64,000 nt of DNA from Gammaproteobacteria bacterium (GTDB lineage: Bacteria; Pseudomonadota; Gammaproteobacteria; Steroidobacterales; Rariloculaceae). Location: positions 284 through 64,283 of the forward strand of contig DATCLY010000070.1 of the NCBI GenBank assembly GCA_036563665.1, given 5' to 3'. Shown in pieces: positions 9,014-52,762 of this stretch. Numbering within the stretch: position 1 is the first letter of the stretch; every line of letters begins with the position of its first letter. Both the position numbers and the translations under genes were made by a program. A model generated the notes under the pieces. The model did not search any database, was not told the DNA's origin, and saw only the letters and a program-made list of their open reading frames with translations.

Positions 9014-9415
9014 TCATTCCTGCTCGCCCGTGCTCGTCCACAGAGGCTCGCCGGTATCGGCCCGCACCATCGACGACGCGTTCGCCGTGTTCGTGCCGTT
9101 GCGCGCCCGATAGCCTTTGACCTTGATGGCGTCGCCCGGCTTCAGCGTGCGGCGCGTGAGGCCGCTGCGCGCCAGCGAGTTCACGCCGAGCAGCTCCACC
9201 GCCCACCGCGAGCGGTTGCCGTCGGCGTCCGTGACTTCCATGTGCACCCAGGTATGCGGGTTCGTCCATTCGATGTCCGTCACTGTGCCGGTGATCTCCA
9301 CCGGCTGACCGATGTCGAACTCCGCCGAGAACGAATGATGGGCGTGCACGCAAGCCCATGCGACAGCGAAAGCGAGCCCCGCGCTCGCCGACACCAGCGT
9401 TCTCAAAACCCCCAT
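9014..9415 (-). CDS. small secreted protein, DUF6152-like paralog 1 (family name from memory, to be verified)
   Basis: ATG 9415 is preceded by AGGGGAG. The signal peptide ends ...AWACVHA and the mature protein starts HHSFSAEFD. It carries the conserved IEWTNPH and KPGDAIKV motifs shared with paralogs at 23033, 46446 and 49536. Confidence 0.8.
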   Translation of the reverse strand: MGVLRTLVSASAGLAFAVAWACVHAHHSFSAEFDIGQPVEITGTVTDIEWTNPHTWVHMEVTDADGNRSRWAVELLGVNSLARSGLTRRTLKPGDAIKVKGYRARNGTNTANASSMVRADTGEPLWTSTGEQE

Positions 9416-9448
9416 GCAGACTCCCCTGCGTTCTATGTCCAATGCGTG

Positions 9449-9465
9449 CCAATAGTATACTTTGG
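9449..9465. promoter_or_regulatory. AT-rich imperfect palindrome CCAATAGTATACTTTGG (core AGTATACT) in a divergent intergenic region; candidate operator
   Basis: It lies between the divergent starts at 9415 (-) and 9507 (+). It stands out against the GC-rich background. The core has the GT-N2-AC symmetry typical of GntR-family operators. Confidence 0.4.
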
Positions 9466-9506
9466 CGACTCAACGGGATAACGATCAGGCCCGGACGGGG
9501 GAGCAG

Positions 9507-10589
9507 ATGAGACGGCCGGCGGCAGCCCTTCTTTTGATCGTTGCGAGCGCACCGTTGCACGCGCAGTGGTTCGACTGGCGCTCTCCGCTCGTGCCGCGCA
9601 CGGCCGACGGGCGGCCGGACCTGAACGCGCCGGCGCCGAAGACGCCCGACGGCCGGCCCGACCTGACCGGTCTGTGGGTGCCCGAAGGCGCGCGCGGCAG
9701 CCTGTTCGACGAGTCGAAGATCCTCGGTTGGGCCCGTGACGCGATGGCCGAGAGGGAGCGGCGCTACTTCCAGGACGATCCGCGCTTTCATTGCCTGCCG
9801 AGCGGACCGAGCTCGTATCTCGCCGGGGCCTCGGTCGGCGGCACCCGCAGGATCGTGCAGCACCCGACTTTCATCGCCGTGCTGAATCCCGACATGACCT
9901 ATCGCGAGATCTTCATGGACGGCCGCGAGCTCGAGGACGAGCCGGTCCTGCCGACCTGGATGGGGTACTCCGCCGGCCGCTGGGAAGGCGACACTCTCGT
10001 CGTCGAGAGCAACGGCTACAACGACAAGACTTGGCTGACCCGCGAGGGGCTGCCGCACACCGAGCAGCTGCGGATCACGGAACGCTACACGCGGCTCGAC
10101 TACGGTCACATGAAGCTCGAGATCACGTACGAGGATCCCGGCACGTTCACGGAGCCCGTGCAGGCCATCGTCGATCTCGTGCATCGGCCGGACGGCGCGA
10201 TGCTCGAGGTGGTCTGCAACGAGTCGGAAACGGGGCGCCGTCATTACAGCGGGGATATCGAGCAGGCCGAGACGAAGGTCGTGGAGGTTCCCGAGGACGT
10301 GCTGCGCCGCTACGTCGGCACGTACCGGGGCACGTGGCTCGGCAACCGGATCACGGCCGTCGTCACCTTCGAGGACGGCGCGCTCTATGTCACGCGCTCC
10401 CCGCGCTATTCCGACACGGGCGGCAACACGGACTCGGACACGTCCCGTCTGATCCCGCAGTCCGAGAACGCGTTCGACAGCAGCTTCGGCCTCGGCTTCG
10501 TGTTCAACGTGAACGAGAACGGCGAGGTCGAGAGCGTATCGGAGGTGCACGTCTCCGGCGCGTGGGTGCTGCGGCGCGTAGAGCCGTAG
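9507..10589 (+). CDS. secreted uncharacterised protein, 'C-x-P-x-G / WEGDTLVV' paralog family, copy 1
   Basis: ATG 9507 follows GGGGGAG and gives the signal MRRPAAALLLIVASAPLHAQ. Family motifs present: FHCLPSGP, GYSAGRWEGDTLVVES, EDPGTFTEP. Confidence 0.8.
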   Translation: MRRPAAALLLIVASAPLHAQWFDWRSPLVPRTADGRPDLNAPAPKTPDGRPDLTGLWVPEGARGSLFDESKILGWARDAMAERERRYFQDDPRFHCLPSGPSSYLAGASVGGTRRIVQHPTFIAVLNPDMTYREIFMDGRELEDEPVLPTWMGYSAGRWEGDTLVVESNGYNDKTWLTREGLPHTEQLRITERYTRLDYGHMKLEITYEDPGTFTEPVQAIVDLVHRPDGAMLEVVCNESETGRRHYSGDIEQAETKVVEVPEDVLRRYVGTYRGTWLGNRITAVVTFEDGALYVTRSPRYSDTGGNTDSDTSRLIPQSENAFDSSFGLGFVFNVNENGEVESVSEVHVSGAWVLRRVEP

Positions 10590-10607
10590 CGGTGCCCCGG
10601 CGCACGA

Positions 10608-10625
10608 CCCGGCGGCTACGCCGGG
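10608..10625. terminator. GC hairpin (7-bp stem CCCGGCG/CGCCGGG, loop GCTA) between convergent genes; possible bidirectional terminator
   Basis: Read directly. There is no U-tract, so this is weak. Confidence 0.3.
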
Positions 10626-10656: not shown

Positions 10657-13407
10657 TCAGAAGGTCTTGGTCAACCCGAACGAGAAGCTCCGTCCGCGCG
10701 AGTCGTAGACCTGGGGCAGCGCAAGCTGCGCACCCAGGAAAATCGGCGGGCGCTCGTCGTTGACGTTGTTCACCGCGAAGCGGAGCTCGAGCGGCCTGTC
10801 CGACGCGCCGACGGTCAGGCCGTACACCAGGTCCACCTGCACGTAGTCCTGGTTCGCTTGCAGCGGATGGTCGTCCGCCAGCGCGCTGTGCAGCATGCCC
10901 TCGATGAACCTGACCGTGGTCCGCGCGTACTGGGCGCCGCGCTGCCAGGTCAGGCTCACGTTGGCTTTGAGCTCCGGCGCCGCATCCGCGAAGACGTTGC
11001 TGTTGGTGCGGCCGAGACCGTCGACGACCGGCTGATCTTCCCGAATCTGGTAGTCGAACTTCGTCATGAACGCCGCGGCAGTCGCGAGCCGCAGAGCGCC
11101 CGCGCGACCGATGTCGAAGTCCCAATCGAGCGACAGGTCGAAGCCTTCGGTGTTCAATATCGAGAAGTTGTCGAAGATCAGGTCGATGTCGGTGAGCACG
11201 CCGGATTCGTCGAACGTGAGCCGGTCCGCGTGCGCCCCGGTCCTGACGTACTCCTCCACGACGAGCTGAGCAGACTCCTGGCCGGTGATGTCCCTGGTAT
11301 CGAACCGCCACCAGCCCACCGTCAAGGTCAGGCGGTCGGTCGCGCTCCAAGTGATTCCGGCGCTGTAGGCATCGGCCTTTTCCGGCTCGAGATTCGGGTT
11401 CGGCCGCGTGACGGTGCGTGGAAAGAGCGTATCGATGCCCGGCACGTTGACTGTGTCGGTCAAGCCGGCGCTCGTCGCGTACGTGGGCACGAGCCCCGGT
11501 GCCTTGAACGACTTGCCGTATGTAGCCCGCACGATGAGGTTGTCGGTCGCGTCCCACAGCATCCCGATCTTCGGCACGACCGCCTCGATCCCTTCGCCGT
11601 AGTCCTCGTAACGGCCGGCGAGCTGCAGCTCGAGGGTGGAGGTGGCAGGCACCAGGAACTCGAAGAACAACGCGTGCGAGTCGCGATTCGCATCGAACGG
11701 CACCTCGCGGTTGCCGGCGAACTCGCCCGCAAGCGTCAACGGGTCGAAATCGTTCTTCATCGCCTCGTTGCGAAACTCGTAGCCGACCGCGACGCTCACC
11801 TCTCCGGCCCGCGTCTCCGCGATGTCGCCCGTGATGACGCCCGTAGCGGTGACGAGGCGCGACCGGGAGATGTTCTCCGCAAACGGGGTCATGAAGTCGA
11901 TGAGCGCCGGGTCGTTGTGCTCCGGGTCGCCGGGGCTCGCGAGATACTGCGATCCGAACGGGTTGTAGTATCTGCAGTCGCCGACCCCCGGCGTGCCGGT
12001 GTTTGGGTCGCAGCCGAAGCCGCCCAGTCCGAGCAACGCGTTGGCCACGCGCTCGGGGACGACTCCCCGGTTCTGCGCGAACGCTTCGTTCACGGACCAG
12101 GTGAGCTTCGTGTCCCAGCGCCAGTTGCTGCCCGGCGCGAAGTCGCCGTCGGCGAACAGGGCTACGCGCCAGGTGTCGCTGCTCGCGGTGAAGACGTTCG
12201 TACGATCCGGGCCGGCCGCGGGCCCGAGGATCGATCCCCGAAACAGAACGTCACCGCCGAACGGGTTCGCCGGGTGACTCGCGGGAACCAGCGACTCCGG
12301 CGCGGCGCCCGCATAGCCGGCCGCGCGTTGGAAATCGGAGCGCGTGAACCCGAGCTCCATCCCGATGTCGAGCGACTCGGCGACGCCGTGGTCGATGCGC
12401 GCGTACACGCTGGTGCGATCGACGGACGAAATGGCGGCGCGGCCGAGCCGGCCGTCCAACCGGCAGATCTGATCATTGTTCGCCGGCGAGCCCTGGAATC
12501 CCGGCACGCCGGCGACCGTCCCTTCCCCGAGCCGCGGATCGCCGCACAGCGGATCGCGGATCAGCCGATTCTCCCGTCCCGGCGGCACCAGCTCGTTGTA
12601 GGCCTGTCCCGGGATCAGCCGAAAGCTGCCCGGGCTGCCGTTCGCGCCGAGCTGCGGGTTCGCCTGGTTGAACGCGTAGACGTCGGGGTGGCTCAAGTAA
12701 TCGAACGGATCGCGCTCGAGCTGCTCGAATGCGAACAGCACGTGCGAGGTCTCCGTGCCGTGCCCGAGCAGGCCGGCGACGAGGCGCTCGTTCTGCCCTC
12801 CTACGTCGGTTTGCTGCCAGCTCGCTTGCAGCTCGATGCCTTCGAAGTCGTTGCGCGTAATGAAGTTCACCACGCCCGCGACCGCGTCCGTGCCGTACAG
12901 CGCCGATGCGCCGTCCTTGAGCACCTCCACGCGCTCGATCGCGATGGCCGGCATCAGGGAGTTCACGTCGAACGTCACCACGCCGTCGCGGTTCGGCTGT
13001 GCGTTGTTCACGGACCGGCCGCCGTTCAGCAGCACCAGCGTCGCGCGCGGCCCGAGCGAACGCAGATTGATCGGCGCGGAGGTGGAGGTGCCCATGCCCG
13101 TGCCGAAGCTCGTGAACACGTCGCTGCCGTTGAACGCCGGATCCGCGTGCAGCACCTCGGCGATCGAGGAGCGCGGCGTGAAAGCGAGCTCCTGCTGGGT
13201 GAGGATCGTGAGCGGGCTCGAGGAATCTTCCGCGCGCCGCAGATAGGAGCCGGTGACGACGACTTCCTCCACCCCGCCGCGATCCGCGTCCTGCGCGGCG
13301 GCGGGTTCGTAGGCCGCCGATAGCGCGAGCCCGAGCGTCGGCAAGGCTGCGGATGCGGATGAACGTCGGAGCAGCGAGCGGCGCGAGAGCCGCGGCGAGC
13401 GTTTCAT
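10657..13407 (-). CDS. TonB-dependent receptor
   Basis: 916 aa. The signal peptide is followed by a plug-like EEVVVTGSYLRR...PLTILT...INLRSLGPRATLVLLNGGR. The C-terminus ends in aromatic ...FSFGLTKTF. Confidence 0.92.
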   Translation of the reverse strand: MKRSPRLSRRSLLRRSSASAALPTLGLALSAAYEPAAAQDADRGGVEEVVVTGSYLRRAEDSSSPLTILTQQELAFTPRSSIAEVLHADPAFNGSDVFTSFGTGMGTSTSAPINLRSLGPRATLVLLNGGRSVNNAQPNRDGVVTFDVNSLMPAIAIERVEVLKDGASALYGTDAVAGVVNFITRNDFEGIELQASWQQTDVGGQNERLVAGLLGHGTETSHVLFAFEQLERDPFDYLSHPDVYAFNQANPQLGANGSPGSFRLIPGQAYNELVPPGRENRLIRDPLCGDPRLGEGTVAGVPGFQGSPANNDQICRLDGRLGRAAISSVDRTSVYARIDHGVAESLDIGMELGFTRSDFQRAAGYAGAAPESLVPASHPANPFGGDVLFRGSILGPAAGPDRTNVFTASSDTWRVALFADGDFAPGSNWRWDTKLTWSVNEAFAQNRGVVPERVANALLGLGGFGCDPNTGTPGVGDCRYYNPFGSQYLASPGDPEHNDPALIDFMTPFAENISRSRLVTATGVITGDIAETRAGEVSVAVGYEFRNEAMKNDFDPLTLAGEFAGNREVPFDANRDSHALFFEFLVPATSTLELQLAGRYEDYGEGIEAVVPKIGMLWDATDNLIVRATYGKSFKAPGLVPTYATSAGLTDTVNVPGIDTLFPRTVTRPNPNLEPEKADAYSAGITWSATDRLTLTVGWWRFDTRDITGQESAQLVVEEYVRTGAHADRLTFDESGVLTDIDLIFDNFSILNTEGFDLSLDWDFDIGRAGALRLATAAAFMTKFDYQIREDQPVVDGLGRTNSNVFADAAPELKANVSLTWQRGAQYARTTVRFIEGMLHSALADDHPLQANQDYVQVDLVYGLTVGASDRPLELRFAVNNVNDERPPIFLGAQLALPQVYDSRGRSFSFGLTKTF

Positions 13408-13449
13408 ACCCTCGATCCCCCTTAACGACCTTCGACCCTTGCGGTCGCG

Positions 13450-13480
13450 TTTATATTATAATATTAGTATCTTTTAGTTG
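13450..13480 (-). promoter_or_regulatory. AT-rich promoter/operator box upstream of the TonB receptor (TATTATAATATTAGTAT; palindromic core TAATATTA)
   Basis: This is the only AT-rich stretch for kilobases. On the minus strand it contains TATAAT about 45 nt upstream of ATG 13407. It shares the 9-mer ATAATATTA and flanks with the box at 15040-15062. Confidence 0.55.
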
Positions 13481-14967: not shown

Positions 14968-15039
14968 GGCGGTGTCCCCGTGAGTCCGCGCGTCGCTGCA
15001 CGGCGGAGTCGTCGTCGCACGGCTGCACATTCGATCGCC

Positions 15040-15062
15040 AAATATAATAATATTATGATATA
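15040..15062. promoter_or_regulatory. AT-rich divergent promoter/operator box (TATAATAATATTATGATATAG; same TAATATTA core)
   Basis: It lies between the ASST start (14967, -) and the sulfatase start (15087, +). TATAAT lies 39 nt upstream of ATG 15087. Confidence 0.55.
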
Positions 15063-15086
15063 GCCGCAACGCCTTCGGGAGGGGAC

Positions 15087-16745: not shown

Positions 16746-16809
16746 GCCGCGTCGACCGCGTCGAGAGCGGAGGCTTGCACGAGAGCCGGCGCATTTTACC
16801 GTCCACCGA

Positions 16810-41710: not shown

Positions 41711-42416
41711 CTACTCCCCGGCGGCACGTGCGAGATGCCGATGGAGGAACCTCACGATGCGCGGCCAGAGATCCGCCGACGCGGCGGCGTTGCCGCGCGG
41801 GCTGCCGCCGAACGCGCGCGTGAGCGGCACGACCGGATGCCGCCCGGACGTGCTCGTCGCAGGGAGGTTCGGCGGCATGCACGCGAAGTGCCCCGCCGCG
41901 GGATAGCGCACGTGCTCGAACGGGTACGCGAACCCGCGGCTGCGCAGGCGCTCCTCGGCGATCGCGGCGAGCCGCGCGGACGCCCAGAGCTGGTCGTCCT
42001 CGGCCGACATCATCAAGATCGGGCCGCGCGTTCGCTCGACGGGTATGGCGAAGGCGTCGATGCCGGCGCCCACCGCGTCGAGCGCGCGCAGGAACGCGGG
42101 CGCTCCCGCGAACGGCGCGCCCGTGGCGAACGCGGCGCGGCTTCCTGCATCGTGAGCGGATCGCCGGGCGGCGGGAAGACGGGGAACGGCTTGAAGGCGA
42201 GCATCCATCGGCGCCTTGGTAATCGCCCCCGACCGGCGCGTGCCGCGAGACGTCGACCGCGCCGTCGGCGGAGGCGACGAATTCCGCGCTCGCTTCCGCC
42301 TTCAGCGTGTGATTCCGGAGCTGCAAGCGGACGCGCGCGCCTGGCTCGAGGCCCGCCAGCGTGATCGCGGCCGGCTGGTCGACCAGGGCGTCAGCCGGCG
42401 TGACCGTGAGCCGCAT
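41711..42416 (-). pseudogene. acyl-CoA thioesterase/BAAT-family gene remnant (internal deletion plus frame changes)
   Basis: The BAAT N-domain start (MRLTVTPADALVDQPAAITLAGLEPGARVRLQLRNHTLKAEASAEFVASADGAVDVSRHAPVGGDYQGADG) is in one frame. The BAAT_C end (IDAFAIPVERTRGPILMMSAEDDQLWASARLAAIAEERLRSRGFAYPFEHVRYPAAGH) is in another. The whole locus is about 236 codons, whereas I recall this family as roughly 400 aa or more. The GxSxG nucleophile region is absent. Confidence 0.65.
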
Positions 42417-45492: not shown

Positions 45493-46449
45493 CTATCGAG
45501 CCGCGTCCTCGAGCCGGACCTCGCCGATCCCGGCCGCGCGATCGCGGAACTGGTTGAACAGCGATTCGTCGCTCGGGACGCAGCGATCCTCCAGGATACC
45601 CGACCACCCGCCGATCGCCATGCGTTCCTTCGGGATCAGCGCCCAGACCTTCGGGCTCGCTTCCCACGGCTCGGTGTAGGTCGCGGGGTCGATCAGGGTG
45701 AGCCGCACGCGCAGCCGGTTGGGGCTCGGGCGGTCCCAGCGCTCCTCCAGCACCGCCTCGTCGCTGATGGGGAAGCCGTACTGGTCGAGCCACTGCCGGT
45801 CGTCGAAGCCGGTCGAGGTCACGACGAGCGTGTCGCCCTCCCAGCGGCCGACCGAGTAGCCGTTGAAGCGCGGCAGGTAGTCCTCGACGTTCGGGATGCC
45901 GCGCCCGTCCAACCAGATGTCGCGGAAATCCCAGGTCCACTCGAAGAGCTGAAGAATCCGGTCGTCCGTTTGCACGATCTCCATCGCGGCCCCGATCCCG
46001 GCGAACGTGATCAGCCGCGCGAGGCCGAGCGGCTCGCAGCGCATCTCCGGGTCGTTGCCGAACGCGGGCAGCACCGCGCGACGGTAGCCCGGATGGATGT
46101 CGGTGCGCTGCGCGGCCGCTTCACTGCCGAGCTCGAGGCCGCGCGACGGCCGGTTCTGCTCGAACCGCCGTTGCCCTTCCGGCGTCATCGGCGGCGTCTC
46201 GCCGAAGAAGCCGTAGCCCGGCCAGGTGGCCGGGTCGCGGCACTCCGGGCAAGGGGGCAGGTCGTATTGCTCCGGCGCGCGGCTCCAGAGCCCGCGAAAG
46301 TCCCGCTTGTCGTAGCTGCGCGTGTCCGTGTCCGACGAGCCGATGCCGCCGGGCGCGGCCGCCGGGCGGTCGCCCTGCGCCGCCGCGCCCTGGCCGAGCA
46401 GCGCGAGCACACAGGTCGCCGCCACCGCGAACGGGCGGTATCGCCTCAT
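45493..46449 (-). CDS. secreted uncharacterised protein, 'C-x-P-x-G / WEGDTLVV' family, copy 4
   Basis: This is the real part of track ORF 45493..46824. ATG 46449 overlaps the upstream stop (ATGA). Motifs present: MRCEPLGLA, GYSVGRWEGDTLVVTS, IDPATYTEPW. Confidence 0.8.
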   Translation of the reverse strand: MRRYRPFAVAATCVLALLGQGAAAQGDRPAAAPGGIGSSDTDTRSYDKRDFRGLWSRAPEQYDLPPCPECRDPATWPGYGFFGETPPMTPEGQRRFEQNRPSRGLELGSEAAAQRTDIHPGYRRAVLPAFGNDPEMRCEPLGLARLITFAGIGAAMEIVQTDDRILQLFEWTWDFRDIWLDGRGIPNVEDYLPRFNGYSVGRWEGDTLVVTSTGFDDRQWLDQYGFPISDEAVLEERWDRPSPNRLRVRLTLIDPATYTEPWEASPKVWALIPKERMAIGGWSGILEDRCVPSDESLFNQFRDRAAGIGEVRLEDAAR

Positions 46450-46937
46450 CGCGCTGCCTCCTCGCCCGGGAGGAGCTTGTCGCCCGTCGGCTGGCGGCCG
46501 CCCGGCACACCGTCGAGGTCCGGAGCGCCCGGGCCGCCGAATCCTCCGGCGATCGGTTCCCCGTTCTCGTTCTCGATGCGCATCACGATGGCGCTGAATC
46601 CGCCCGCGCGCGACGTGCCGAGCGTGAGCTTCACGCGCGTGCCGGGCGCTAAGGCGTCGAGCGTGCGCTTGCGGGTCCAGCCCTGCCGCGCCATCGTCGA
46701 CGGGTTGGTCAGCAGCTCCGCAAGCCAGTGCTCCACCTCGCCGTTTCCCACGACGCGGTCGAAGGTCATCGTGGGGTGCGGGTTCGCATAGTTGAACCAC
46801 GTGACCGTGGCCCACGTGGTCCACAGGTTCTCGACGTCATACGAGATGGCGCTGCCGTGGTGTGCGCCTGCCGGCATCGCAGTCATAACCAGCCCGACGG
46901 CGATTGCCGCGATCGCGCCGTGCATCCGTCGTCTCAT
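46446..46937 (-). CDS. small secreted protein, DUF6152-like paralog 3 (with Gly/Pro-rich C-terminal tail)
   Basis: ATG 46937 follows GAAGGAGGAA. The signal peptide ends ...MPAGA and the mature protein starts HHGSAISYD. It carries FNYANPH and APGTRVKL. Confidence 0.8.
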   Translation of the reverse strand: MRRRMHGAIAAIAVGLVMTAMPAGAHHGSAISYDVENLWTTWATVTWFNYANPHPTMTFDRVVGNGEVEHWLAELLTNPSTMARQGWTRKRTLDALAPGTRVKLTLGTSRAGGFSAIVMRIENENGEPIAGGFGGPGAPDLDGVPGGRQPTGDKLLPGEEAAR

Positions 46938-46949: not shown

Positions 46950-48704
46950 TCATCGGTCGCCGGCGAGATCGCGATACACCGCTTCGATGAACGCCTCGGT
47001 GGTCCACGGCCCGCGGGTGGCACCGAACACGCCGGCGTAGTCGAGCGCGGGCCGGCTGCGCTTGACGTCGGCCAGCGATTCGCCGGCGTCGATCGCGCGC
47101 TGGATGCGGTCCCGGATGATCGTGAGCATGTCCCGGTACTCCGCGACGTCGGTCTCGTCGTACAGCCGGCCGTGCCCTGGAACCACGCTCGTTCCGCCTT
47201 GCGCGCGCGTCTCGGCCACGGTGATGTCGAGGATGCGGTTCAAGGCCGCGATGAGACCGTTCACGGAGCCGCCCTCGCTCGCGGCGAAGCTCGGAAAGCT
47301 GGTGGTGGAGATCACGCCGCCCGCGCTGACGACGTCGGAGCCGCGGAAGAACACCAGCGAGTCGCCGTCCGTGTGCGCGCCTGGCACGTGGATGATCTCG
47401 ATCGCTTCGCCGTTGAAGTAGATCGCCTTCGACGCGCCGTAGAAAGTATCCATGACGAGGTTGCCCGCCTCGGCGCCGGTCTCCGCGAGGCGCAGCCCCA
47501 CGTTCTCGTGCGCGAGCACGGCCGCCTGCTGCAACGGCTCGTTCGCGAGCACGAGGTTGCCCCCGGTGTGGTCCGCGTGGAAATGCGTGTTCACGACATA
47601 GCGGATGGGCCGATCGCCCGCGAGCCGCCGGATCTCCTCGCGAACGGCCGGGGCCGCGTCCGCCGACCCCGTGTCGACGACGAGGACGCCTTCGTCGCCG
47701 ATCTGCACCGTGACGTTGCCGCCTGCGCCGAAGATCGCCCACACCTTTCCCTTCACGTGCATCGAGCGGATGCCCGCCGGGGGCGGCGCGGCCGCCGTCA
47801 CGGTGGCCGGCGGCGCCGCGACGGCGCGGTTGCCCCCGCGCTCGAGGCGGGCGGCGAACTCGGGGTACATCGTCGGCGCGCCCGCCGCCAACGCCCAGCG
47901 CGGCAGCGAGTACTTGCCCGCGAACTCGTCCAGCAGCGGATTCTCGCCCGGCAGGTAATGCGGCACGCGGTACTTGTCGGCCGTCGTCTCCTCCGCCGGG
48001 AAGCACTTGTAGAAGATCGGCGCGTCGTTGCGGGTGAGCGGATCGCCGAGCGCGGGCCCGGGACGCGGCAGCAACCGATACTCCGTGGTCCTGACGAACG
48101 GCTCGGCCAAGTACACCGGGTCGTCGACGACGGTGGTCACCAGCAGGTAGTCGTCGAAGCGCGTGAACTGCTCGATCATCCTCGCGCGCTCGCTCGTGGG
48201 CGCGCCGTTGCGGCGCAGCCAGCCGGGCTTCATGTGCGTGGTCTCGACGACGAGCGAATCTCCCTCCCAGCGACCCGTGGAGAACCCTTCGAAGGTGTGG
48301 AGCGCTTCCGGCGGCGGATGGGGACGACCGTCCAGCCAGACGATGCGGTCGATGCCGAAGGTGCCCTCCAGCCGGATCGCCTCCGCGACGCGGCGCACCC
48401 GATCGAACTGGGTCGTGACGACCAGCGTGTTCGGCCCCCAGAGCTGATACGCCGCCGGATGGGGCGTGCACTGATGCTCGGGGACGCTGAGCCAGGAGCC
48501 GGAGTAGCTCTCGGCCTTGCGGATGCCGGCCTCGTTGAGCGGCAGCCCGAGGTAGTCGCCGATCTCGGGTCCCGCGCCCCGGTCGTTGAAATCCTCGTGG
48601 CCGAAGACGCCCGGATGCTCCCAGGCGCCCGTGAAGTCCACTTGCGCGACGGCGATGGAGAGCGGCGCGAGCGCCAGCGCGAGAAGCGATTCGAGCCGTT
48701 TCAC
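46950..48704 (-). CDS. natural fusion: 'WEGDTLVV' family domain (copy 5) + MBL-fold metallo-hydrolase domain, secreted
   Basis: The start is GTG 48704. The N-half has DFTGAW, HQCTPHPAA, GFSTGRWEGDSLVVET and VDDPVYLAEPF. The C-half has VVNTHFHADHTGG and HVPGAHTDGD. Confidence 0.85.
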   Translation of the reverse strand: MKRLESLLALALAPLSIAVAQVDFTGAWEHPGVFGHEDFNDRGAGPEIGDYLGLPLNEAGIRKAESYSGSWLSVPEHQCTPHPAAYQLWGPNTLVVTTQFDRVRRVAEAIRLEGTFGIDRIVWLDGRPHPPPEALHTFEGFSTGRWEGDSLVVETTHMKPGWLRRNGAPTSERARMIEQFTRFDDYLLVTTVVDDPVYLAEPFVRTTEYRLLPRPGPALGDPLTRNDAPIFYKCFPAEETTADKYRVPHYLPGENPLLDEFAGKYSLPRWALAAGAPTMYPEFAARLERGGNRAVAAPPATVTAAAPPPAGIRSMHVKGKVWAIFGAGGNVTVQIGDEGVLVVDTGSADAAPAVREEIRRLAGDRPIRYVVNTHFHADHTGGNLVLANEPLQQAAVLAHENVGLRLAETGAEAGNLVMDTFYGASKAIYFNGEAIEIIHVPGAHTDGDSLVFFRGSDVVSAGGVISTTSFPSFAASEGGSVNGLIAALNRILDITVAETRAQGGTSVVPGHGRLYDETDVAEYRDMLTIIRDRIQRAIDAGESLADVKRSRPALDYAGVFGATRGPWTTEAFIEAVYRDLAGDR

Positions 48705-48705: not shown

Positions 48706-49536
48706 CTACTCTCCTCGTGCCGCGAGCGGCGGCGCCGTCCGGCAGGGCGACGGGCGCCAGCTCGAGCCGTCCGGCTCGCGCTTGAAATGCGACGACGTGA
48801 CGAAATCGCTGCTCAAGTACGTCGGGTCGTGGACGATCGAGAGCACGGTCAGGTAATCGTTGCCGAACGCCGAGAAGCGGGAGAAATACTCCGTGAGCAC
48901 TGCGTTCTCGCTATAGGGCACGCCGTTCTTGCGCAGATACCCGGCGCGCAGGTGCGTGGTCACCGCCTTGAGCGCGCCCTTGGGTGGGCCGTCCGCGGGC
49001 ACGGGCGGCCTGCCGCTCATCACCGCCCTCAGATCGAAGCCCCCGACGGGGCGCGTCCACTCCGCGGTCGTGAAGCCCTGCCAGCTCTTCTCCGTCGACG
49101 GCGGCGGCGCGGCGCCGAAGCGGAGCAACCGCGTCTGCTCGCCCGCATCGGTCTCGATCTTGAGCGTGTCGTCGTCGTGCCAGGAGATGTGCAGGCGCAA
49201 CGGCATCCGCATGAGGCCGGCCGCGCCGAACGGCCGGCAGGCTTCGCCGCTCGCGGCGTCGCGCGCGGGATCCCATGCCGCGGCGACGCGTCGGCCTTCC
49301 GCGTTGAGCGGCACGCTGGTCGCGTCGCCCGGCGGCGGCGTGATCATTCGCCACAGCCAGTCCTCCGTGACCAGCGCCACCCAGTAGCCGGTGAGATCCA
49401 CCTGCGCGGATTCCCGCGCCGAGCGCGGCGCGGCGAAGCCGGGTCCTGCACCCGGCTGGGCGACGGCGGGTCCCGCGACGGTCAGCGCGATGAGCGACAG
49501 GGCGGCCGAAGGCCACGCCGCGCAGTGTCGCCGCAT
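48706..49536 (-). CDS. secreted uncharacterised protein, 'WEGDTLVV' family copy 6 (WEGD motif degenerate)
   Basis: This is the real part of track ORF 48706..49722. ATG 49536 overlaps the upstream stop (TGATG). It has DLTGYW, EACRPFGAAG and VHDPTYLSSDF. It aligns with the N-half of 46950..48704, for example THLRAGYLRKNGVPYSENAVLTEYFSRF against THMKPGWLRRNGAPTSERARMIEQFTRF. Confidence 0.75.
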   Translation of the reverse strand: MRRHCAAWPSAALSLIALTVAGPAVAQPGAGPGFAAPRSARESAQVDLTGYWVALVTEDWLWRMITPPPGDATSVPLNAEGRRVAAAWDPARDAASGEACRPFGAAGLMRMPLRLHISWHDDDTLKIETDAGEQTRLLRFGAAPPPSTEKSWQGFTTAEWTRPVGGFDLRAVMSGRPPVPADGPPKGALKAVTTHLRAGYLRKNGVPYSENAVLTEYFSRFSAFGNDYLTVLSIVHDPTYLSSDFVTSSHFKREPDGSSWRPSPCRTAPPLAARGE

Positions 49537-49928
49537 CAGTCCACGACCTCGCCCGGCAGAGTGCCCCAACCGAAACCGTCCGTCGTGCGCGTGATCGTCC
49601 TGAGCAGCAGACGGTGCTCCTCGGCGACCCGCCCCGGGTTCCCCGTCACGATGACCGGATCGCCGGGCCGCAGGGTTTGCGCCGTCAACCCGCGGGCGCC
49701 GAGCTGATTCGCGCCCTGCCACTCCACGGCCCAGCGGGTGCTCCCGCCGGAGCCGTCGGGCACCAGCACGTGCAGCACCGAATGCGGATTGCGGAACTGG
49801 AACTGCGCCACCTTGCCTTCGATGCGAATCGTCTCGTCGGCCCGGTAAACGGCCGCGAAGGAATGATGCGCGGCCGCCTGCCCGGCCGAGAGCGTCGCGA
49901 GCGCCAGAGCGACGACGATGCGTTTCAT
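49536..49928 (-). CDS. small secreted protein, DUF6152-like paralog 4
   Basis: ATG 49928 gives MKRIVVALALATLSAGQAAA, and the mature protein starts HHSFAAVYR. It carries FQFRNPH and RPGDPVIV. Confidence 0.8.
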   Translation of the reverse strand: MKRIVVALALATLSAGQAAAHHSFAAVYRADETIRIEGKVAQFQFRNPHSVLHVLVPDGSGGSTRWAVEWQGANQLGARGLTAQTLRPGDPVIVTGNPGRVAEEHRLLLRTITRTTDGFGWGTLPGEVVD

Positions 49929-49933: not shown

Positions 49934-50935
49934 TCACCTGCGGTTCTTGCGGACGATGTCCGCCTGCATGCATTCGGAGACGATCCGCCAGAAGCGCTGA
50001 TACCGCTCGCTGCCCATGACGAACGGATGCGGGTCGCCCGGCCCTCGAGCCGCGAGCGCGGCGAGGCGCGCCGGCGTGTCGTCGAAGATCGGATGATTCT
50101 GTATCTCGACGTCCACGTTCTCGCGCGCCGCGACGTCGAGATAGTGGGCGATCGAGTCGATGTAGCGCTCGAGCCCCGCCGGCGGCGTGTAGGCCGCCGC
50201 GAGCACGGTGCCGCCGAAGAGGCCGGCCACGTGAGCTTCGCCGCGGTCGCGCACGGGGAAGATGAACGCGAGCGCGCCCGGCGTGTGACCCGGAATCTCC
50301 ACGGGCGTGATGGTCAGGTCGCCGACGACGATCGGCTCGCCCTCACGCACGACGAGGTCGCGCGTCGGGGCGGGTGTCGCGTCCCGCCTCCCCGAGGTCA
50401 CCGCCTGGGCGATGGTATCCCAGTCGGCCGCCGTGGTCCCGACCCGTGCGCCGTAGCGCGTCTGGAAGTAGCTCGCGCCGCCGTAGTGATCCGAATGGCC
50501 GTGGCCGAGCAGCACGAGCACCACGTCCGCGGGGTCGAGGCCGAGCTCGACGAGCCCGGGGAGCAGCACGGGCTCCACCTCCGACGCCACGCCGGCATCG
50601 ATGAGGACGATGCCCGCCGACGTCGTGATCGCGTGAACGACCGTCTCGGAGTTGCCGAGCGCGTATAGATTATCGAACAGTTTGACGGGCTCGAGCGGCG
50701 GCGCCGAGAAGTCGTTCGGCCGCGCGTTGCCGGGGACGCAGAAGAACTCGAAGGGCGCCGTCAGGTCCGTGCCGGCCAGGAGGCGCGCGTTCTCGACGTG
50801 GCGTGCGGCAAGCGCCTCGGCGGGGGCGTCGTCCGTCACGCCGTCCTGCGCCAGTGCCTGCCCGAACGGCAGGAGGAGCAGCGTTGCCGCTGCGCCGAGG
50901 CAGGTGGCGTAGAGCCCGGTTCTCGACTGACGCAT
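49934..50935 (-). CDS. secreted MBL-fold metallo-hydrolase (subclass B3-like layout)
   Basis: It has a signal peptide, the HxHxDH motif LLGHGHSDHYGG, and a downstream PGHTPG. Confidence 0.8.
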   Translation of the reverse strand: MRQSRTGLYATCLGAAATLLLLPFGQALAQDGVTDDAPAEALAARHVENARLLAGTDLTAPFEFFCVPGNARPNDFSAPPLEPVKLFDNLYALGNSETVVHAITTSAGIVLIDAGVASEVEPVLLPGLVELGLDPADVVLVLLGHGHSDHYGGASYFQTRYGARVGTTAADWDTIAQAVTSGRRDATPAPTRDLVVREGEPIVVGDLTITPVEIPGHTPGALAFIFPVRDRGEAHVAGLFGGTVLAAAYTPPAGLERYIDSIAHYLDVAARENVDVEIQNHPIFDDTPARLAALAARGPGDPHPFVMGSERYQRFWRIVSECMQADIVRKNRR

Positions 50936-50999
50936 ACGACCCCCACGCTTCCGGCGGAAGCGCCGACGGACATAGTGCGTCGCGAGAAGCGCGGCGGTG

Positions 51000-51014
51000 A
51001 TCGAATTTTCGAAT
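51000..51014. promoter_or_regulatory. candidate LysR-type box ATCGAATTTTCGAAT (T-N11-A; inverted repeat TCGAA-tt-TTCGA)
   Basis: This AT-rich element lies in the 114-bp gap between the LysR stop (51050) and the MBL gene start (50935). A TATAAA-like element is adjacent. Confidence 0.4.
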
Positions 51015-51049
51015 GCCAGGTATAAAGGCTCGACGATGAGTCGCGTCGG

Positions 51050-51952
51050 TCAGACCGAGCTCGCGACCTGCAGCAATTGCTCGCGCATCCACGCGTGCGC
51101 CGGGCTCGAGGTGAAGCGCGGGTTCCAGGCCAGCTTCTCGCGCAGCGGGGGCACCTCGAACGGCAGCTCCAGCAGGCGCAGCTCCGCCGCGTTCCGCATC
51201 CGCTCGCCGAGGCGCCGCGGCAGCATGGCGAGCAGCCGCGTTCCCCGCAGCAGGAACGGCGCGGCCGTGAAGCTCGCGCTCGACGCGGCGATCTTCTGCA
51301 CGTGGCCGTGGCGAGAGAGGTACTCGTCGGCGATGGAGAGGCGGCCTGGGTCCGAGATATTGAAGGAGAGGTGCGGATGCGCGAGGTACTCCTCGAGCGA
51401 CAGCGTGTCGCCGATCGCCGGATGTCCCGCCCAGACGGCGCATACCCAGCCGTCGTCGAACAGCGGGATCGAAGGCAGCGACAGCTCGACTTCCTCGGGG
51501 AAGATGCCGAAATCCACCTCGCCCGCCGCGATGCGCTCGCCGGCTTCCACGTCGAGCCGCACGAAGTGCAGCGACACGCCCGGCGCCGCTTCCGCCAGCC
51601 GCTGCATCAGGGGGCCGAACAGCAGCAGCACGGCGTAGTCGCTGGCGGCGATGCTGAAGGAACGGCTCTGCGTGGCCAGCGAGAAGCTCGGCTTCGCGTT
51701 CAGGAGCTCTTCGAGCTCCACGACGTGCCGGTGCACGCGGTCGGCGATGCCGGCGGCGAACTCGGTGAGCTCGAGATGCCGGCCCACGCGCACGAGCAGC
51801 TCGTCATCGAACGTCTGCCTCAGCCTCGCGAGCATGCCGCTCATCGCCGGCTGACTCATGAACAGCCGCTCCGCCGCCCGCGTGACGTTCCGCTCCTGCA
51901 GCAGCGCGTCGAGCGCGAGCAGCAGGTTGAGGTCGAACTGCCTGAGATTCAT
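51050..51952 (-). CDS. LysR family transcriptional regulator (NodD-like)
   Basis: The N-terminus is MNLRQFDLNLLLALDALLQERNVTRAAERLFMSQPAMSGMLARLRQTF, followed by a LysR substrate-binding domain. Confidence 0.88.
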   Translation of the reverse strand: MNLRQFDLNLLLALDALLQERNVTRAAERLFMSQPAMSGMLARLRQTFDDELLVRVGRHLELTEFAAGIADRVHRHVVELEELLNAKPSFSLATQSRSFSIAASDYAVLLLFGPLMQRLAEAAPGVSLHFVRLDVEAGERIAAGEVDFGIFPEEVELSLPSIPLFDDGWVCAVWAGHPAIGDTLSLEEYLAHPHLSFNISDPGRLSIADEYLSRHGHVQKIAASSASFTAAPFLLRGTRLLAMLPRRLGERMRNAAELRLLELPFEVPPLREKLAWNPRFTSSPAHAWMREQLLQVASSV

Positions 51953-51970
51953 CGCGGTGGCTCGGAGCCC

Positions 51971-52762
51971 CTACTCCGCTATGCGGTGCCGCTCGAGCTC
52001 GTCGTGCCAGAGCCCCTTGCTGCAGCCGTACTCGAGCGTCGCGGAGTCGTCCATGCGCTGATAGTAGGCGATGCGCCGCTGCGGGCCGTCGTAGAGCGTG
52101 GGATCGGTCAGCGTCATGTCGATCACGAGCACGTCGTCGTTGATCGGCGGCTGAACCGTGGCCACGAAGCCGGTCGGCCGCGGGCCCACGTTCGCGAGCT
52201 TGGTGAGCCGGACGCGCTCCACGATCCGGGTCTGCTCGCTGCGCGGCCATGGGCGGAGCCACCACTCCTCGAGCAGCCGCGTGTCGATGACCAGCGTGTC
52301 GCCGTCCCACGTGCCGATCGAGTAGCCGACCCCGGCGGGCGGATAGTCGTCCGGAAACTCCCGGCCGTCCAGGAACACGCGGCGGACCTGCGTCTCGAGC
52401 TCGGCCACCATCACGATGCGCGACGCGGTCTGCACGAGCTCGATCGGATAGGACACCAGCGACAGCATGACGCCCGGCATGCCCGCCCCGACGCACCAGG
52501 CGCCCGTCTCCGGAATCTCCGAGAACTGCTCGGCGAACGCGCGCAGCTTCGCCTCGCCTTCCGCCGAGTAGCGCGGCGCGTTGCCGCCGCCGTCCGGGTT
52601 CTCGACGGCGAACGCCATCCACACGCCGGAGAAGTCCGGATGCGACGCCGTCCCGGCTGTCGCGTCCTGCGCCGGGTCCGCCGGTGTGCAGGCGGTCGCG
52701 AGCAGGAACGCGAGCGGTAAACCCGCCGCGAGAAAACCCGTGGATCGATGCAATGCCGGCAT
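51971..52762 (-). CDS. secreted or lipoprotein uncharacterised protein, 'C-x-P-x-G / WEGDTLVV' family, copy 7
   Basis: Motifs present: AWCVGAGMPG, GYSIGTWDGDTLVIDT, LTDPTLYDGP. The N-terminus ends ...FLLATAC. Confidence 0.8.
   Translation of the reverse strand: MPALHRSTGFLAAGLPLAFLLATACTPADPAQDATAGTASHPDFSGVWMAFAVENPDGGGNAPRYSAEGEAKLRAFAEQFSEIPETGAWCVGAGMPGVMLSLVSYPIELVQTASRIVMVAELETQVRRVFLDGREFPDDYPPAGVGYSIGTWDGDTLVIDTRLLEEWWLRPWPRSEQTRIVERVRLTKLANVGPRPTGFVATVQPPINDDVLVIDMTLTDPTLYDGPQRRIAYYQRMDDSATLEYGCSKGLWHDELERHRIAE

Follow-up and report, generated by a model that had tools for sequence, protein, structure and literature searches.

DUF6152 proteins and a family of exported, predicted calycin-like barrels are near-obligate partners and may form a periplasmic capture and hand-off module

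Results

DUF6152 and a second family of exported proteins are near-obligate partners in several phyla of soil and sediment bacteria, a conclusion well supported by gene linkage across many genomes. As for what the pair does, the explanation that we favour, as yet tentatively, is that of a periplasmic small-molecule capture and hand-off unit serving periplasmic hydrolases, in which the small subunit carries a probable metal site.

Two exported families in one window

The first-pass annotation had placed four small paralogous genes and seven members of a second secreted family in the window (the whole stretch of 64,000 nucleotides analysed here). Both counts are borne out (Table 1). All four small ORFs (S1-S4) match Pfam DUF6152 (PF19649), with scores of 52–98 bits (cutoff 27). 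The seven large ORFs (B1-B7) are mutually homologous in all-versus-all BLASTP (E-values down to 3e-26), B6 being linked through the N-terminal half of B5 (3e-21) and B3 through B1. HMMs built from the window members recover exactly these seven large and four DUF6152 genes from the six-frame translation, and none further. Independent ENA/Logan-contig gene calls from the same organism (130, 276, 584, 163, 318, 450, 263, 133 and 127 aa) agree with the annotated coordinates, with B1 as the sole exception: its start is called there as the TTG at 9555, whereas translation from the ATG at 9507 yields a complete signal peptide and agrees with orthologues of 359–360 aa. B1 also has an extra C-terminal DUF3471-like domain (25 bits, below the DUF3471 cutoff), and B7 may be a lipoprotein, to judge from a lipobox-like LLATAC in its translation.

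The signatures that had been proposed for the two families hold less widely than claimed. B5 (CTPHP) and B7 (CVGAG) lack C-x-P-x-G, which was ascribed to all large members. Exact copies of G-x-W-E-G-D-T-L-V-V are found in B1, B2 and B4; B5 (GDSLVV) and B7 (GTWDGDTLVI) have near-exact ones, and those of B3 and B6 are degenerate. DP-x-x-(Y/F), likewise given for all, is found in four of the seven (B1, B2, B4 and B7). In the small family, the (W/F)xNPH motif reads Y-A-NPH in S3. The view that neither family has an assigned function stands: DUF6152 is a Pfam DUF, of which we found no mention in the literature under either name (DUF6152 or PF19649), and the large family (14,908 clusters at 50% identity) matches nothing in Pfam or NCBIfam even at E <= 1. 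Neither family has a sequence relative in the PDB.

Table 1 Features of the two families and of their surroundings in the window
Feature	Coordinates	Strand	Basis
S1, DUF6152 small subunit, 133 aa	9014..9415	-	Pfam PF19649 97.7 bits; identical ENA gene call
Palindrome in the S1/B1 intergenic region	9448..9466	.
B1, large-family barrel protein, 360 aa	9507..10589	+	BLASTP to B4 3e-26
B2, minimal large-family barrel protein, 263 aa	22240..23031	-	Homology; AlphaFold model FABP-like
S2, DUF6152 small subunit, 127 aa	23033..23416	-	Pfam 86.3 bits
Exported MBL-fold hydrolase, 509 aa	42524..44053	-	Pfam Lactamase_B on ENA gene call
B3, divergent, enlarged large-family member, 450 aa	44116..45468	-	BLASTP to B1 3.5e-8; window HMM 2.7e-74
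B4, large-family barrel protein, 318 aa	45493..46449	-	BLASTP homology
S3, DUF6152 small subunit, 163 aa, long C-terminal tail	46446..46937	-	Pfam 52.1 bits
B5, barrel domain (N-terminal half) and MBL-fold hydrolase (C-terminal half)	46950..48704	-
B6, large-family barrel protein, 276 aa	48706..49536	-	BLASTP homology; independent gene call
S4, DUF6152 small subunit, 130 aa	49536..49928	-	Pfam 75.6 bits
Exported subclass-B3-like MBL, 333 aa, HGHSDH motif	49934..50935	-	Pfam on ENA gene call
LysR-family regulator	51050..51952	-	Pfam HTH_1 and LysR_substrate
B7, large-family barrel protein, 263 aa, without adjacent DUF6152	51971..52762	-	BLASTP to B2 1e-17

The stop/start junctions reported for three of the pairs read as described. 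At S2/B2 (TGAcATG, 23029-23035) a single nucleotide separates the S2 stop TGA from the B2 ATG, at S3/B4 (ATGA, 46446-46449) the B4 ATG overlaps the S3 stop, and at S4/B6 (TGATG, 49534-49538) the B6 start overlaps the S4 stop; B5 in turn starts 1 nt after the B6 stop. The fourth pair, S1 and B1, is indeed divergent around a palindrome, the two genes being 91 bp apart. This palindrome, GCCAAT-AGTATACT-TTGGC, occurs only once in the window (~0 chance matches expected) and is a candidate operator.

The entire run from 50935 to 42524 forms a single conserved operon. Its first structural gene, that of the 333-aa MBL, ends 5 nt before S4 and is syntenic in ~15 loci; the best PDB relatives of its product are BJP-1, Blr6230 and L1 (7e-23). 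The operon is closed by the gene for the 509-aa MBL-fold hydrolase, which has no PDB sequence relative and is syntenic with the operon in L054–L056, L071, L074, L075 and L078. The LysR-family regulator gene stands immediately upstream of the operon, the same place that it occupies in L057, L059, L068, L071, L074 and L075. In other genomes, B3 orthologues come after B4. The single operon had been absent from the first-pass annotation, as had the fold assignments, the predicted N-terminal His-His and the MBL fusions in both orders that are described below.

The pairing is kept across genomes

The adjacency of the two families is strongly conserved outside this genome. In 76 unrelated genome loci drawn from Gamma- and Alphaproteobacteria and Acidobacteriota, 89 of the 96 assessable DUF6152 genes lie directly beside a large-family gene, which is directly downstream on the same strand in 84 cases and directly upstream in 5. 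A second, independent sample, taken with the large family as its starting point, shows 69 of 116 large-gene blocks linked to DUF6152; ~40% of large-family genes have no DUF6152 nearby, so that the barrel is evidently able to work without the small subunit. The usual order is small then large, with stop and start overlapping or nearly so; arrangements differ between loci (small→large, large→small, divergent), the linkage persisting throughout. Cognate classes are also kept (S2–B2, S3–B4 and S4–B6), with S2–B2 orthologue pairs found in more than 40 loci and the S3–B4 pairing retained in ~25. A mirror-tree comparison of 131 adjacent pairs gave r = 0.88 against a maximum of 0.07 in 500 permutations, a correlation that any co-inherited neighbours would be expected to show and that is no proof of physical contact. 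The small/large pair duplicates and diverges as a unit. Among cultured bacteria, candidate carriers of the module are Novosphingobium humi, Croceibacterium atlanticum, Sinorhizobium mexicanum and Aurantiacibacter gilvus.

It could be argued that the two genes have no functional link and that they are adjacent only because closely related genomes inherited the same duplicated segment. Many of the sampled loci are indeed from related Gammaproteobacteria MAGs, and co-inheritance alone yields mirror-tree signals. However, adjacency spans Gamma- and Alphaproteobacteria, Acidobacteriota and Gemmatimonadota, in settings that are otherwise unrelated, gene order changes while linkage stays, and bona fide fusions exist. 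This reading is already disfavoured, and we consider it extremely improbable.

Separately, pairs of DUF6644 membrane-protein genes adjoin DUF6152 in 5 loci from four lineages and are weakly similar to DUF2214; in Azospirillum, DUF6644 comes after DUF6152 and a barrel gene is absent.

Natural fusions join the families to each other and to MBL-fold enzymes

A clade of DUF6152–linker–barrel fusions comprises 10 clusters (369–387 aa) from independent sources, with no internal signal peptide in the fused chains, and three fused genes lie in tandem at L171. DUF6152 is always the N-terminal domain, and its free amino terminus is thereby kept. Among three tandem double-barrel proteins that were checked, two are followed by DUF6152. 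These natural single-chain fusions, together with the co-diversification described above, indirectly support an interaction between the two families. The small subunit would dock on the barrel 1:1, or 1:2 in those cases in which one small gene precedes two barrel genes or the barrels form a tandem fusion.

Barrels are also fused to hydrolases. The C-terminal half of B5 matches Pfam Lactamase_B (52.8 bits, residues 328-390) with an intact HFHADH motif, its barrel–MBL architecture recurs in P0269, P0312 and P0270, and the reverse MBL–barrel order is seen in P0367.

The small subunit is a predicted OB fold starting with His-His

Signal peptides were assessed by eye and, for DUF6152, additionally by the (-3,-1) rule in 103 sequences. 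Position -1 is A/S/G in 100 of these, position -3 is mostly A, V or L, and HH directly follows the predicted cleavage site, as at VHA|HHSF in S1. Sec export and signal-peptidase cleavage would thus leave a small subunit whose N-terminus is His-His. Conservation is 98% for the His predicted at +1; across 49 non-redundant sequences it is at least 94% for each of H21, H22, N47, P48, H49, W66 and E69. The subunit (~105 residues) is predicted to adopt an OB fold (model pLDDT 86, S2 entry), and its His-His, NPH histidine, Trp and Glu probably form a metal or ligand site. Such a conserved set, three His and one Glu at a free N-terminus, suggests metal chemistry just as strongly as passive carriage.

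Two groups of metal proteins invite comparison. One is CusF, a metallochaperone for Cu(I)/Ag(I) that works in the periplasm and has an OB fold. DUF6152 is likewise small and exported, with a predicted OB fold and conserved His and Trp residues that might bind a metal at the face of the barrel. Unlike CusF, it has no conserved Met ligands, carries His-His at its predicted mature N-terminus, lacks a Pfam CusF match and has no RND efflux pump encoded alongside; CusF chains are absent from the top 50 Foldseek matches of the DUF6152 model. DUF6152 also resembles the (mono-)histidine-brace copper proteins LPMOs, CopC and YcnI in that its predicted first mature residue is His and a further His is conserved, but its predicted fold is OB and not an Ig-like or cupredoxin-like β-sandwich, and copper binding by it is hypothetical. 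CopC and YcnI partner with CopD-type membrane proteins (PMC8424229, PMC12154828), to which the DUF6644 pairs beside a few DUF6152 genes may be compared, whereas the usual partner of DUF6152 is a soluble barrel protein.

The large subunit is a predicted FABP-like barrel

The large protein (~230 residues) has as its predicted core a 10-stranded FABP/calycin-like β-barrel (pLDDT 73 overall, 85–95 within the barrel and below 50 at residues 72–85, in the low-confidence portal region). Foldseek aligned the model with CRABP, CRBP and FABP4 at target-normalised TM-scores of 0.5–0.62, and the model shares with these antiparallel barrels a first strand with F-x-G-x-W and, after it, a helical insert. No relation to FABPs or lipocalins was detected at the sequence level (hhalign probability <1%; no Pfam match). 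The barrel further differs from FABP, CRABP and CRBP in being exported with a signal peptide, in its size (~100 residues larger, with a ~80-residue portal insert), in its conserved cysteine pair, and in its near-obligate OB-fold partner and MBL hydrolase fusions. In 96 non-redundant sequences, C110, R145, W170, E202, D220 and C246 are at least 94% conserved. Lying between strands A and B, the insert would form an enlarged helical "portal", the cysteines, one in the portal region and one near the C-terminus, possibly form a disulphide, and the near-invariant Arg, Glu, Asp and Trp probably line the barrel.

We propose that the ligand of the barrel is probably a small organic molecule, either amphipathic or poorly soluble, and that the module would present such substrates to periplasmic hydrolases, above all MBL-fold enzymes; substrates or products could also pass from outer-membrane receptors toward inner-membrane transporters. 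As no neighbour family is universal, the step of serving hydrolases rests on a minority of loci and on the barrel–MBL fusions in both orders. If the capture unit is true, the many paralogous pairs per genome would represent different ligand specificities. SdsA1-type alkylsulfatases combine an MBL catalytic domain with an SCP-2-like domain that recruits hydrophobic substrates. B5, P0269 and P0367 similarly join an MBL-fold hydrolase to a putative small-molecule-binding domain, and SdsA1 is among the weak PDB matches of the B5 MBL half (5e-7), although the likeness is at the level of the MBL superfamily only, the fold of the recruitment domain differs, and the putative binding domain here is mostly a separate protein with its own partner.

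The same residues could instead belong to a self-contained two-subunit periplasmic metalloenzyme, in which the barrel would hold a hydrophobic substrate and the His-His/His/Glu metal of the OB subunit, redox or Lewis-acid in a histidine-brace-like site on a new scaffold, would oxidise or hydrolyse it. The conservation of the +1 His, the free amino terminus kept in fusions, the conservation of the polar R145, E202 and D220 even in orphan barrels without DUF6152, the catabolic genes that surround the modules and the paralogue expansion, typical for catabolic enzymes, are consistent with such an enzyme. Against it, known histidine-brace proteins are β-sandwiches and not OB folds, ~40% of barrels would lack the putative catalytic subunit, and no electron-donor partner is consistently nearby, and we regard it as quite unlikely.

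Neighbouring genes and the case for metals

MBL genes are the commonest neighbours, found at 25 of 156 loci (16%), Acidobacteriota included. TonB-dependent receptors are near ~20% of loci and PQQ/β-propeller genes near 9%, and no neighbour family is universal in these counts. The earlier suggestion that the pairs take part in periplasmic handling of an imported substrate is, with receptors at this frequency, only plausible.

The recurrent association with MBLs, fusions included, brings to mind a role in inhibiting or regulating periplasmic metallohydrolases. Both TIMPs (OB fold) and the serralysin inhibitors of bacteria (APRin; calycin fold) inhibit through their N-termini, and by analogy the N-terminal His of the OB protein, which here has a free N-terminus and a calycin-like partner, might coordinate the active-site zinc of an MBL-fold enzyme. 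Yet 84% of loci have no MBL nearby, an enzyme fused to the partner of its own inhibitor is hard to rationalise, and the analogy with TIMP and APRin is the sole basis of the idea, which we hold to be very improbable.

Periplasmic metal trafficking is an unlikely but more serious alternative to the capture and hand-off unit. DUF6152 would be a Cu/Zn/Ni metallochaperone (N-terminal His-His, NPH His and Glu) and the barrel its docking partner or the holder of a metallophore, the metal being delivered to or withdrawn from periplasmic metalloenzymes such as MBLs, or passed to a membrane importer. MBLs require metal insertion in the periplasm, where both folds have precedents, CusF as an OB-fold metallochaperone and ZinT as a calycin-fold zinc protein. 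The near-invariance of H21, H22, H49 and E69 at a mature N-terminus predicted to be free, the DUF6644 pairs, the Azospirillum arrangement and the TonB-dependent receptors all speak for this reading. On the other hand, the inspected loci lack metal-sensing regulators and efflux or uptake systems as regular neighbours, a chaperone would not usually be present in four to seven paralogues within 64 kb, the Cys pair is the only potential His, Cys or Met ligand set that the barrel conserves, and there is no Pfam match to CusF, ZinT or CopC. Like ZinT/YodA, a periplasmic calycin-fold zinc-binding protein, the module links a calycin-like barrel that is exported to His-rich metal binding (predicted here), but the His ligands of ZinT are on its barrel itself, and the barrel family has no sequence or Pfam relation to it.

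No metal sensors are found among the regulators encoded nearby, which are of LysR, GntR, TetR and MarR types, and further neighbours of the modules include serine β-lactamase-like, amidohydrolase, lactonase, PQQ-dehydrogenase and sulfatase genes.

Layout of the two families in the window

The window (69.7% G+C) contains four small genes, S1-S4, and seven genes, B1-B7, of a larger second family. The four small paralogs listed in the first-pass annotation all belong to DUF6152, a family that is catalogued in Pfam (PF19649, gathering threshold 27 bits) and uncharacterised, with scores of 52-98 bits. The gene positions agree with those called on independent ENA and Logan assemblies of this organism. 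The proposal of a second family with seven members also stood, both in BLASTP (B1-B4, 3e-26; B5-B6, 3e-21; B2-B7, 1e-17; B1-B3, 3.5e-8) and in a six-frame translation of the window, where HMMs built from the window members found exactly seven large and four DUF6152 copies. The motifs described as universal were narrower. S1-S4 align at A-HH, NPH, W, E and PG positions, but (W/F)xNPH does not extend to S3, which reads Y-A-NPH. Among the large proteins, C-x-P-x-G is missing from B5 and B7, WEGDTLVV is degenerate in B3 and B6, and DP-x-x-(Y/F) occurs in four of the seven.

Three small genes are joined to a large one (S2-B2, S3-B4 and S4-B6) by the overlapping or 1-nt-spaced junctions TGAcATG, ATGA and TGATG that had been described, here read directly from the sequence. 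Gene coordinates and junction sequences show the run from 50935 to 42524 to be tightly packed throughout: MBL333, an exported metallo-β-lactamase (MBL)-fold hydrolase, is followed after 5 nt by S4, then with an overlap by B6, after 1 nt by B5 (a barrel-MBL fusion), after 12 nt by S3, with an overlap by B4, after 24 nt by B3 and after 62 nt by MBL509, a second exported MBL-fold hydrolase.

The fourth locus is divergent, as had been reported, S1 and B1 flanking a 91-bp spacer. Inside it lies the palindrome GCCAAT-AGTATACT-TTGGC, which has no second copy within the window and whose GT-N-AC core we take to resemble GntR-family operators; the window also encodes a GntR/FCD regulator. The ENA call starts B1 at TTG 9555 (344 aa), with loss of the n-region of the signal peptide, while a start at ATG 9507 gives the N-terminus MRRPAAALLLIVASAPLHA/Q and agrees with orthologues of 359-360 aa. 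The last ~100 aa of B1 form an extra, DUF3471-like domain that scores below threshold, and precomputed DUF3471 matches are present on many B1 orthologues. Elsewhere, DUF3471 is found at the C-terminus of serine β-lactamase-like hydrolases.

Coordinates of the features discussed (window positions, or positions in the sampled locus where one is named)
Feature	Coordinates	Strand	Remarks
S1	9014-9415	minus	DUF6152 (PF19649), 97.7 bits
S2	23033-23416	minus	DUF6152 (PF19649), 86.3 bits
S3	46446-46937	minus	DUF6152 (PF19649), 52.1 bits
S4	49536-49928	minus	DUF6152 (PF19649), 75.6 bits
MBL333	49934-50935		first structural gene of the operon
MBL509	42524-44053		last gene of the operon
Palindrome between S1 and B1	9448-9466
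B1 C-terminal domain	10270-10589		DUF3471-like, 25 bits (cut-off 29.3)
B7 N-terminus	52690-52762		lipobox-like
GntR/FCD regulator gene	16810-17595
TonB-dependent receptor, arylsulfotransferase (PF05935), sulfatase (PF00884), GntR/FCD regulator, MFS transporter	10657-18790		beside S1/B1
Serine β-lactamase-family gene (PF00144) and BAAT_C-domain gene	40793-42208		directly downstream of MBL509
Selenocysteine set	29151-29246; ~29176-31155; 37615-40683; 40040-40098	minus	complete
In-frame TGA, molybdopterin gene	40090-40092		inside SECIS_3
DUF6644, locus L089	7326-7832		beside DUF6152
DUF6644, locus L088	12162-13137		beside DUF6152
DUF6644, locus L090	8346-9402		beside DUF6152
DUF6644, locus L073	5498-6550		beside DUF6152
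DUF6644, locus L140	5717-6876		beside DUF6152
Tandem double barrel, then DUF6152, locus L084	5001-6978		Acidobacteriota; reverse of window gene order
Tandem double barrel, then DUF6152, locus L086	5001-7029		Acidobacteriota; reverse of window gene order

Pairing of the two families across genomes

Adjacency of the two families extends beyond this genome. Using DUF6152 peptides as seeds and one genome per species, we collected 76 loci, to which both HMMs were applied. Among their 102 DUF6152 genes, the large-family partner lies directly downstream on the same strand in 84 and directly upstream in 5; 7 have none and 6 are at a contig end, so that 89 of the 96 assessable genes (93%) adjoin a large-family gene. 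Hosts include Steroidobacteraceae, Pseudohongiellaceae, Pseudomonadales, Ca. Rariloculus, Rhodospirillaceae, Aurantiacibacter gilvus and several Acidobacteriota. An independent sample, seeded with the large-family peptide GRWEGD[TS]LV from four sequences and consisting mainly of Vicinamibacterales, Bryobacteraceae and other Acidobacteriota together with Gemmatimonadota, gave an adjacent DUF6152 in 69 of 116 large-gene blocks (51 upstream, 11 downstream, 7 on the opposite strand) and none in the other 47. Thus, DUF6152 almost always occurs with a barrel gene, while ~40% of barrels are orphans. B7, which has no adjacent DUF6152, has a signal sequence ending LLATAC/T and may, by this sequence, be a lipoprotein; the other six large members of the window differ at this point.

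The genes around the pair vary from locus to locus while the pair itself stays, which makes the pair the conserved unit. Cognate classes are also kept across loci, S2 with B2, S3 with B4 and S4 with B6, and a comparison of the two families' distance matrices over 131 adjacent pairs gives r = 0.88 (best of 500 permutations, 0.07). That the families have no functional link is extremely improbable. Arrays of three or four tandem pairs within 10 kb are common elsewhere (for example L091, L158 and L165), and the four pairs of the window are therefore typical, not exceptional. Most of the sampled loci come from metagenome-assembled genomes (MAGs). Cultured carriers include Croceibacterium atlanticum, Novosphingobium humi, N. 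sp. PP1Y, a Sphingobium and Sinorhizobium mexicanum, in which PGAP labels the two genes "DUF6152 family protein" and "hypothetical protein". The genes are plasmid-borne in N. humi (unnamed2, 25.1-27.8 kb), C. atlanticum (38.9-40.6 kb) and S. mexicanum (pEmeITTGR7c), and Aurantiacibacter gilvus is a further cultured host.

Natural fusions and tandem barrels

A profile search through all 1.84 billion representatives recovered 14,908 large-family clusters (50% identity) at E <= 1e-3, of which 8,668 reach E <= 1e-10. Pfam architectures of the longer matches comprise barrel-MBL proteins like B5 (P0269, P0312 and P0270), the order MBL-barrel (P0367) and the order DUF6152-barrel (P0370). P0370 has a single N-terminal signal peptide (...ISA/HHG), DUF6152, a non-hydrophobic linker of ~25 residues and a barrel that begins at DLSGFW, with no internal signal peptide. 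JGI, ENA, Logan and NCBI all contribute members to its 90% cluster, and the architecture of P0370 recurs in nine further fusion clusters (65-87% identity, 369-387 aa). Three fused DUF6152-barrel genes lie in tandem on one 3.45-Mb contig, with one unfused pair alongside. Another candidate, the metagenomic 474-aa protein P0469, was not accepted as one: it still contains an internal signal peptide, MKAHIRAGIILSAGVALSAGLFA, and probably arose from two ordinary paired genes as an artefact of read-through or frameshift.

Both families are exported, on signal peptides assigned by rule, linkage from the DUF6152 side is near-obligate, the families co-diversify and true fusions exist. Together, adjacency, co-diversification and natural fusion identify the large family as the usual partner of DUF6152, and we infer that the S and B proteins form a periplasmic complex. 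Acidobacterial proteins of ~520 aa consist of two barrel domains in tandem, and DUF6152 directly follows the double-barrel gene in two of three cases checked, which matches the "one small, two large" order of S4-B6-B5 and S3-B4-B3 in the window.

Predicted fold of the large family

The large family amounts to ~15,000 clusters at 50% identity and has no model in Pfam (2025 copy) or NCBIfam release 20 and no solved structure, in agreement with the first-pass view that neither family has an assigned function. Pfam gave no match to the barrel in 51 members at E <= 1, and Pfam and NCBIfam together matched only the MBL half of B5 and, weakly, DUF3471 on B1. Both structures described here are single-chain predictions. 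The B2 model has a mean pLDDT of 73, with 85-95 across the barrel and a poorly modelled portal region. Its layout of one N-terminal strand, a part-helical, part-disordered insert of ~80 residues and nine or ten further strands corresponds to the FABP/calycin fold, an up-and-down β-barrel of 10 strands in which a helical insert follows strand A. The best Foldseek matches in the PDB are CRABP2, CRBP1, FABP4 and myelin P2 (E ~2e-4, target-normalised TM 0.5-0.62). The F-x-G-x-W motif noticed in the first-pass annotation falls on the first strand of this predicted barrel; its G-x-W core reads TGLW in B1, AGFW in B2, RGLW in B4, TGAW in B5, TGYW in B6 and SGVW in B7, is unclear in B3, and is conserved at 85% for both G and W in 96 non-redundant sequences.

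FABPs have an N-terminal strand of their own that parallels this one, but sequence kinship is undetectable: hhalign against FABP3 and FABP4 gave probabilities of 0.2-0.3%. The resemblance of "WEGDTLVV" to the FABP "WDGxETTLV" is therefore no evidence of homology and was discarded as such. In 96 non-redundant barrel domains, conservation reaches 94% or more at C110, R145, G164, W170, E202, D220, P221 and C246. C110 and C246 are conserved together and may form a disulphide. Since orphan barrels keep the conserved residues, these serve the function or fold of the barrel itself and not an interface alone. Members of the FABP/calycin superfamily hold a small hydrophobic ligand within the barrel; the large-family barrel would bind a small organic ligand.

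DUF6152 and its predicted N-terminal histidines

The DUF6152 model (pLDDT 86) predicts an OB fold, i.e. a closed barrel of five β-strands with a helix separating strands 3 and 4 (strands 34-45, 50-57 and 63-69, helix 73-78, strands 91-99 and 105-113), and its Foldseek matches are SSB, the anticodon-binding N-domain of LysRS and PriB, at ~1e-4. Searches of the PDB by sequence and by profile returned chance matches only for both families. Across 103 DUF6152 sequences, the HH pair comes immediately after a hydrophobic stretch resembling a signal peptide; position -1 is A, S or G in 100 of them, and position -3 is mostly A, V or L. From these positions, with signal peptides assigned by rule, mature DUF6152 is predicted to start with His-His. 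H21, H22, N47, P48, H49, W66 and E69 are 94-100% conserved in 49 non-redundant sequences, and this His-His/His/Glu set may bind metal or cap the portal.

Such a set also permits other readings. A self-contained metalloenzyme with a histidine-brace-like centre is improbable: histidine-brace copper proteins likewise have His as mature residue 1, as predicted for DUF6152 from rule-based cleavage, but they are built on an Ig-like or cupredoxin-like β-sandwich and not on an OB fold; they bind copper in a T-shaped site made up of the N-terminal NH2, the His1 side chain and a second His. Similarly improbable, in our estimate, is that the pair is an unrecognised two-subunit periplasmic metalloenzyme or metal/ligand exchange machine, whose N-terminal His-His/His/Glu centre on the OB fold would be a histidine-brace-like site on a new scaffold and act on a small molecule held in the FABP-like barrel, with dozens of specificities deployed as tandem pairs in soil Acidobacteriota and Proteobacteria.

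Metal trafficking is somewhat less unlikely. It draws on the histidine set and on small, usually paired DUF6644 membrane proteins that adjoin DUF6152 in five loci, from Azospirillum brasilense, Novosphingobium humi, Sinorhizobium mexicanum, a Vicinamibacterales MAG and a Gemmatimonadota MAG. DUF6644 is possibly a membrane partner of DUF6152, in which case CopC-CopD would offer a parallel; the ±7 kb examined around the Azospirillum locus yielded no barrel gene. DUF6644 is weakly similar (0.006) to DUF2214, which we take to belong with CopD, and as this match is its sole support, a kinship of DUF6644 with CopD is a lead and not a finding. CusF, for its part, holds Cu(I) in a conserved His/Met/Met (+ Trp) site, whereas DUF6152 has no conserved Met, and the window DUF6152 proteins gave no CusF_Ec Pfam match at E <= 0.01. 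Searches of a literature library for DUF6152, PF19649 and DUF6644 found no paper, broader terms gave nothing relevant, and none was found on the large family or its pairing with DUF6152.

Hydrolases around the module and a proposed role

The C-terminal half of B5 matches Lactamase_B at 52.8 bits (cut-off 22.7), and HxHxDH motifs, read from the translations, are HFHADH in B5, HGHSDH in MBL333 and HHHFDH in MBL509; Pfam matches on the ENA gene calls agree with the MBL assignments. The nearest solved relatives of MBL333 are of subclass B3, e.g. BJP-1 and L1 (7e-23), while the MBL half of B5 is at most weakly related to any solved structure. In an NCBIfam scan of the window large-family proteins, the quinoprotein-relay zinc metallohydrolase models TIGR04558/TIGR04559 scored 78 and 67 bits, below their curated cut-off of 280-300. 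The operon LysR-MBL333-S4-B6-B5-S3-B4-(B3-MBL509) recurs in ~20 MAGs, and in some acidobacterial loci an MBL gene is wedged between barrel genes. The physical link between barrel and MBL, by fusion and by adjacency, is recurrent.

When the ORFs surrounding the pair were all clustered, first for 76 loci and then for 156, no universal third partner emerged. By raw counts, MBL is the commonest neighbour family (25 of 156 loci), and TonB-dependent receptor types, spread over three clusters, occur in ~31 and PQQ/β-propeller proteins in 14. Loci with fused genes adjoin PQQ dehydrogenase, SMP-30-type lactonase, amidohydrolase and molybdenum hydroxylase genes. Around the modules of the window lie a TonB-dependent receptor, an arylsulfotransferase, a sulfatase, GntR and LysR regulators, three MFS transporters, a Rieske protein, a small cupin-like protein, three exported MBL-fold hydrolases and a serine β-lactamase-like protein. 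The cluster beside S1/B1 looks like a locus for utilisation of sulfated aromatics or sulfated carbohydrates, and the PF00144 and BAAT_C genes beyond MBL509 continue the richness in hydrolases seen along the operon.

That the module is a TIMP-like inhibitor of metallohydrolases is very improbable. The reading we prefer, tentatively and at rather less than even odds, is a capture-and-presentation module for periplasmic catabolic hydrolases: it would capture substrate in the periplasm and present it to these enzymes, the paralogous pairs supplying different specificities. On the predicted structures, the module would be a calycin-type carrier with a dedicated OB-fold partner, both folds being familiar as ligand-binding; there is a non-negligible chance that its chemistry is new, and the near-invariant His-His, predicted to be free at the N-terminus, may be a sign of metal chemistry on a scaffold for which none had been described.

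Through the partnership, two anonymous families become one defined module with a testable architecture. To our knowledge, FABP-like soluble barrels are no established class of periplasmic carrier, and the passage of poorly soluble or scarce organic substrates across the periplasm to hydrolases and inner-membrane transporters is, as far as we know, not yet well understood; a carrier system that is modular and rich in paralogues in the dominant soil phyla would, if real, bear on it. A new annotation model for the large family is justified, and genetics is feasible in the cultured hosts.

Elsewhere, the window holds a complete selenocysteine set. It includes a tRNA-Sec on which ARAGORN and Rfam agree, a gene for a SelB-type elongation factor and a molybdopterin (formate-dehydrogenase-like) gene whose in-frame TGA falls within an 84-bit Rfam match to SECIS_3. 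In the gene calls the selenoprotein is broken up into a product of 196 aa and a downstream piece, which a frame scan puts at ~826 codons.
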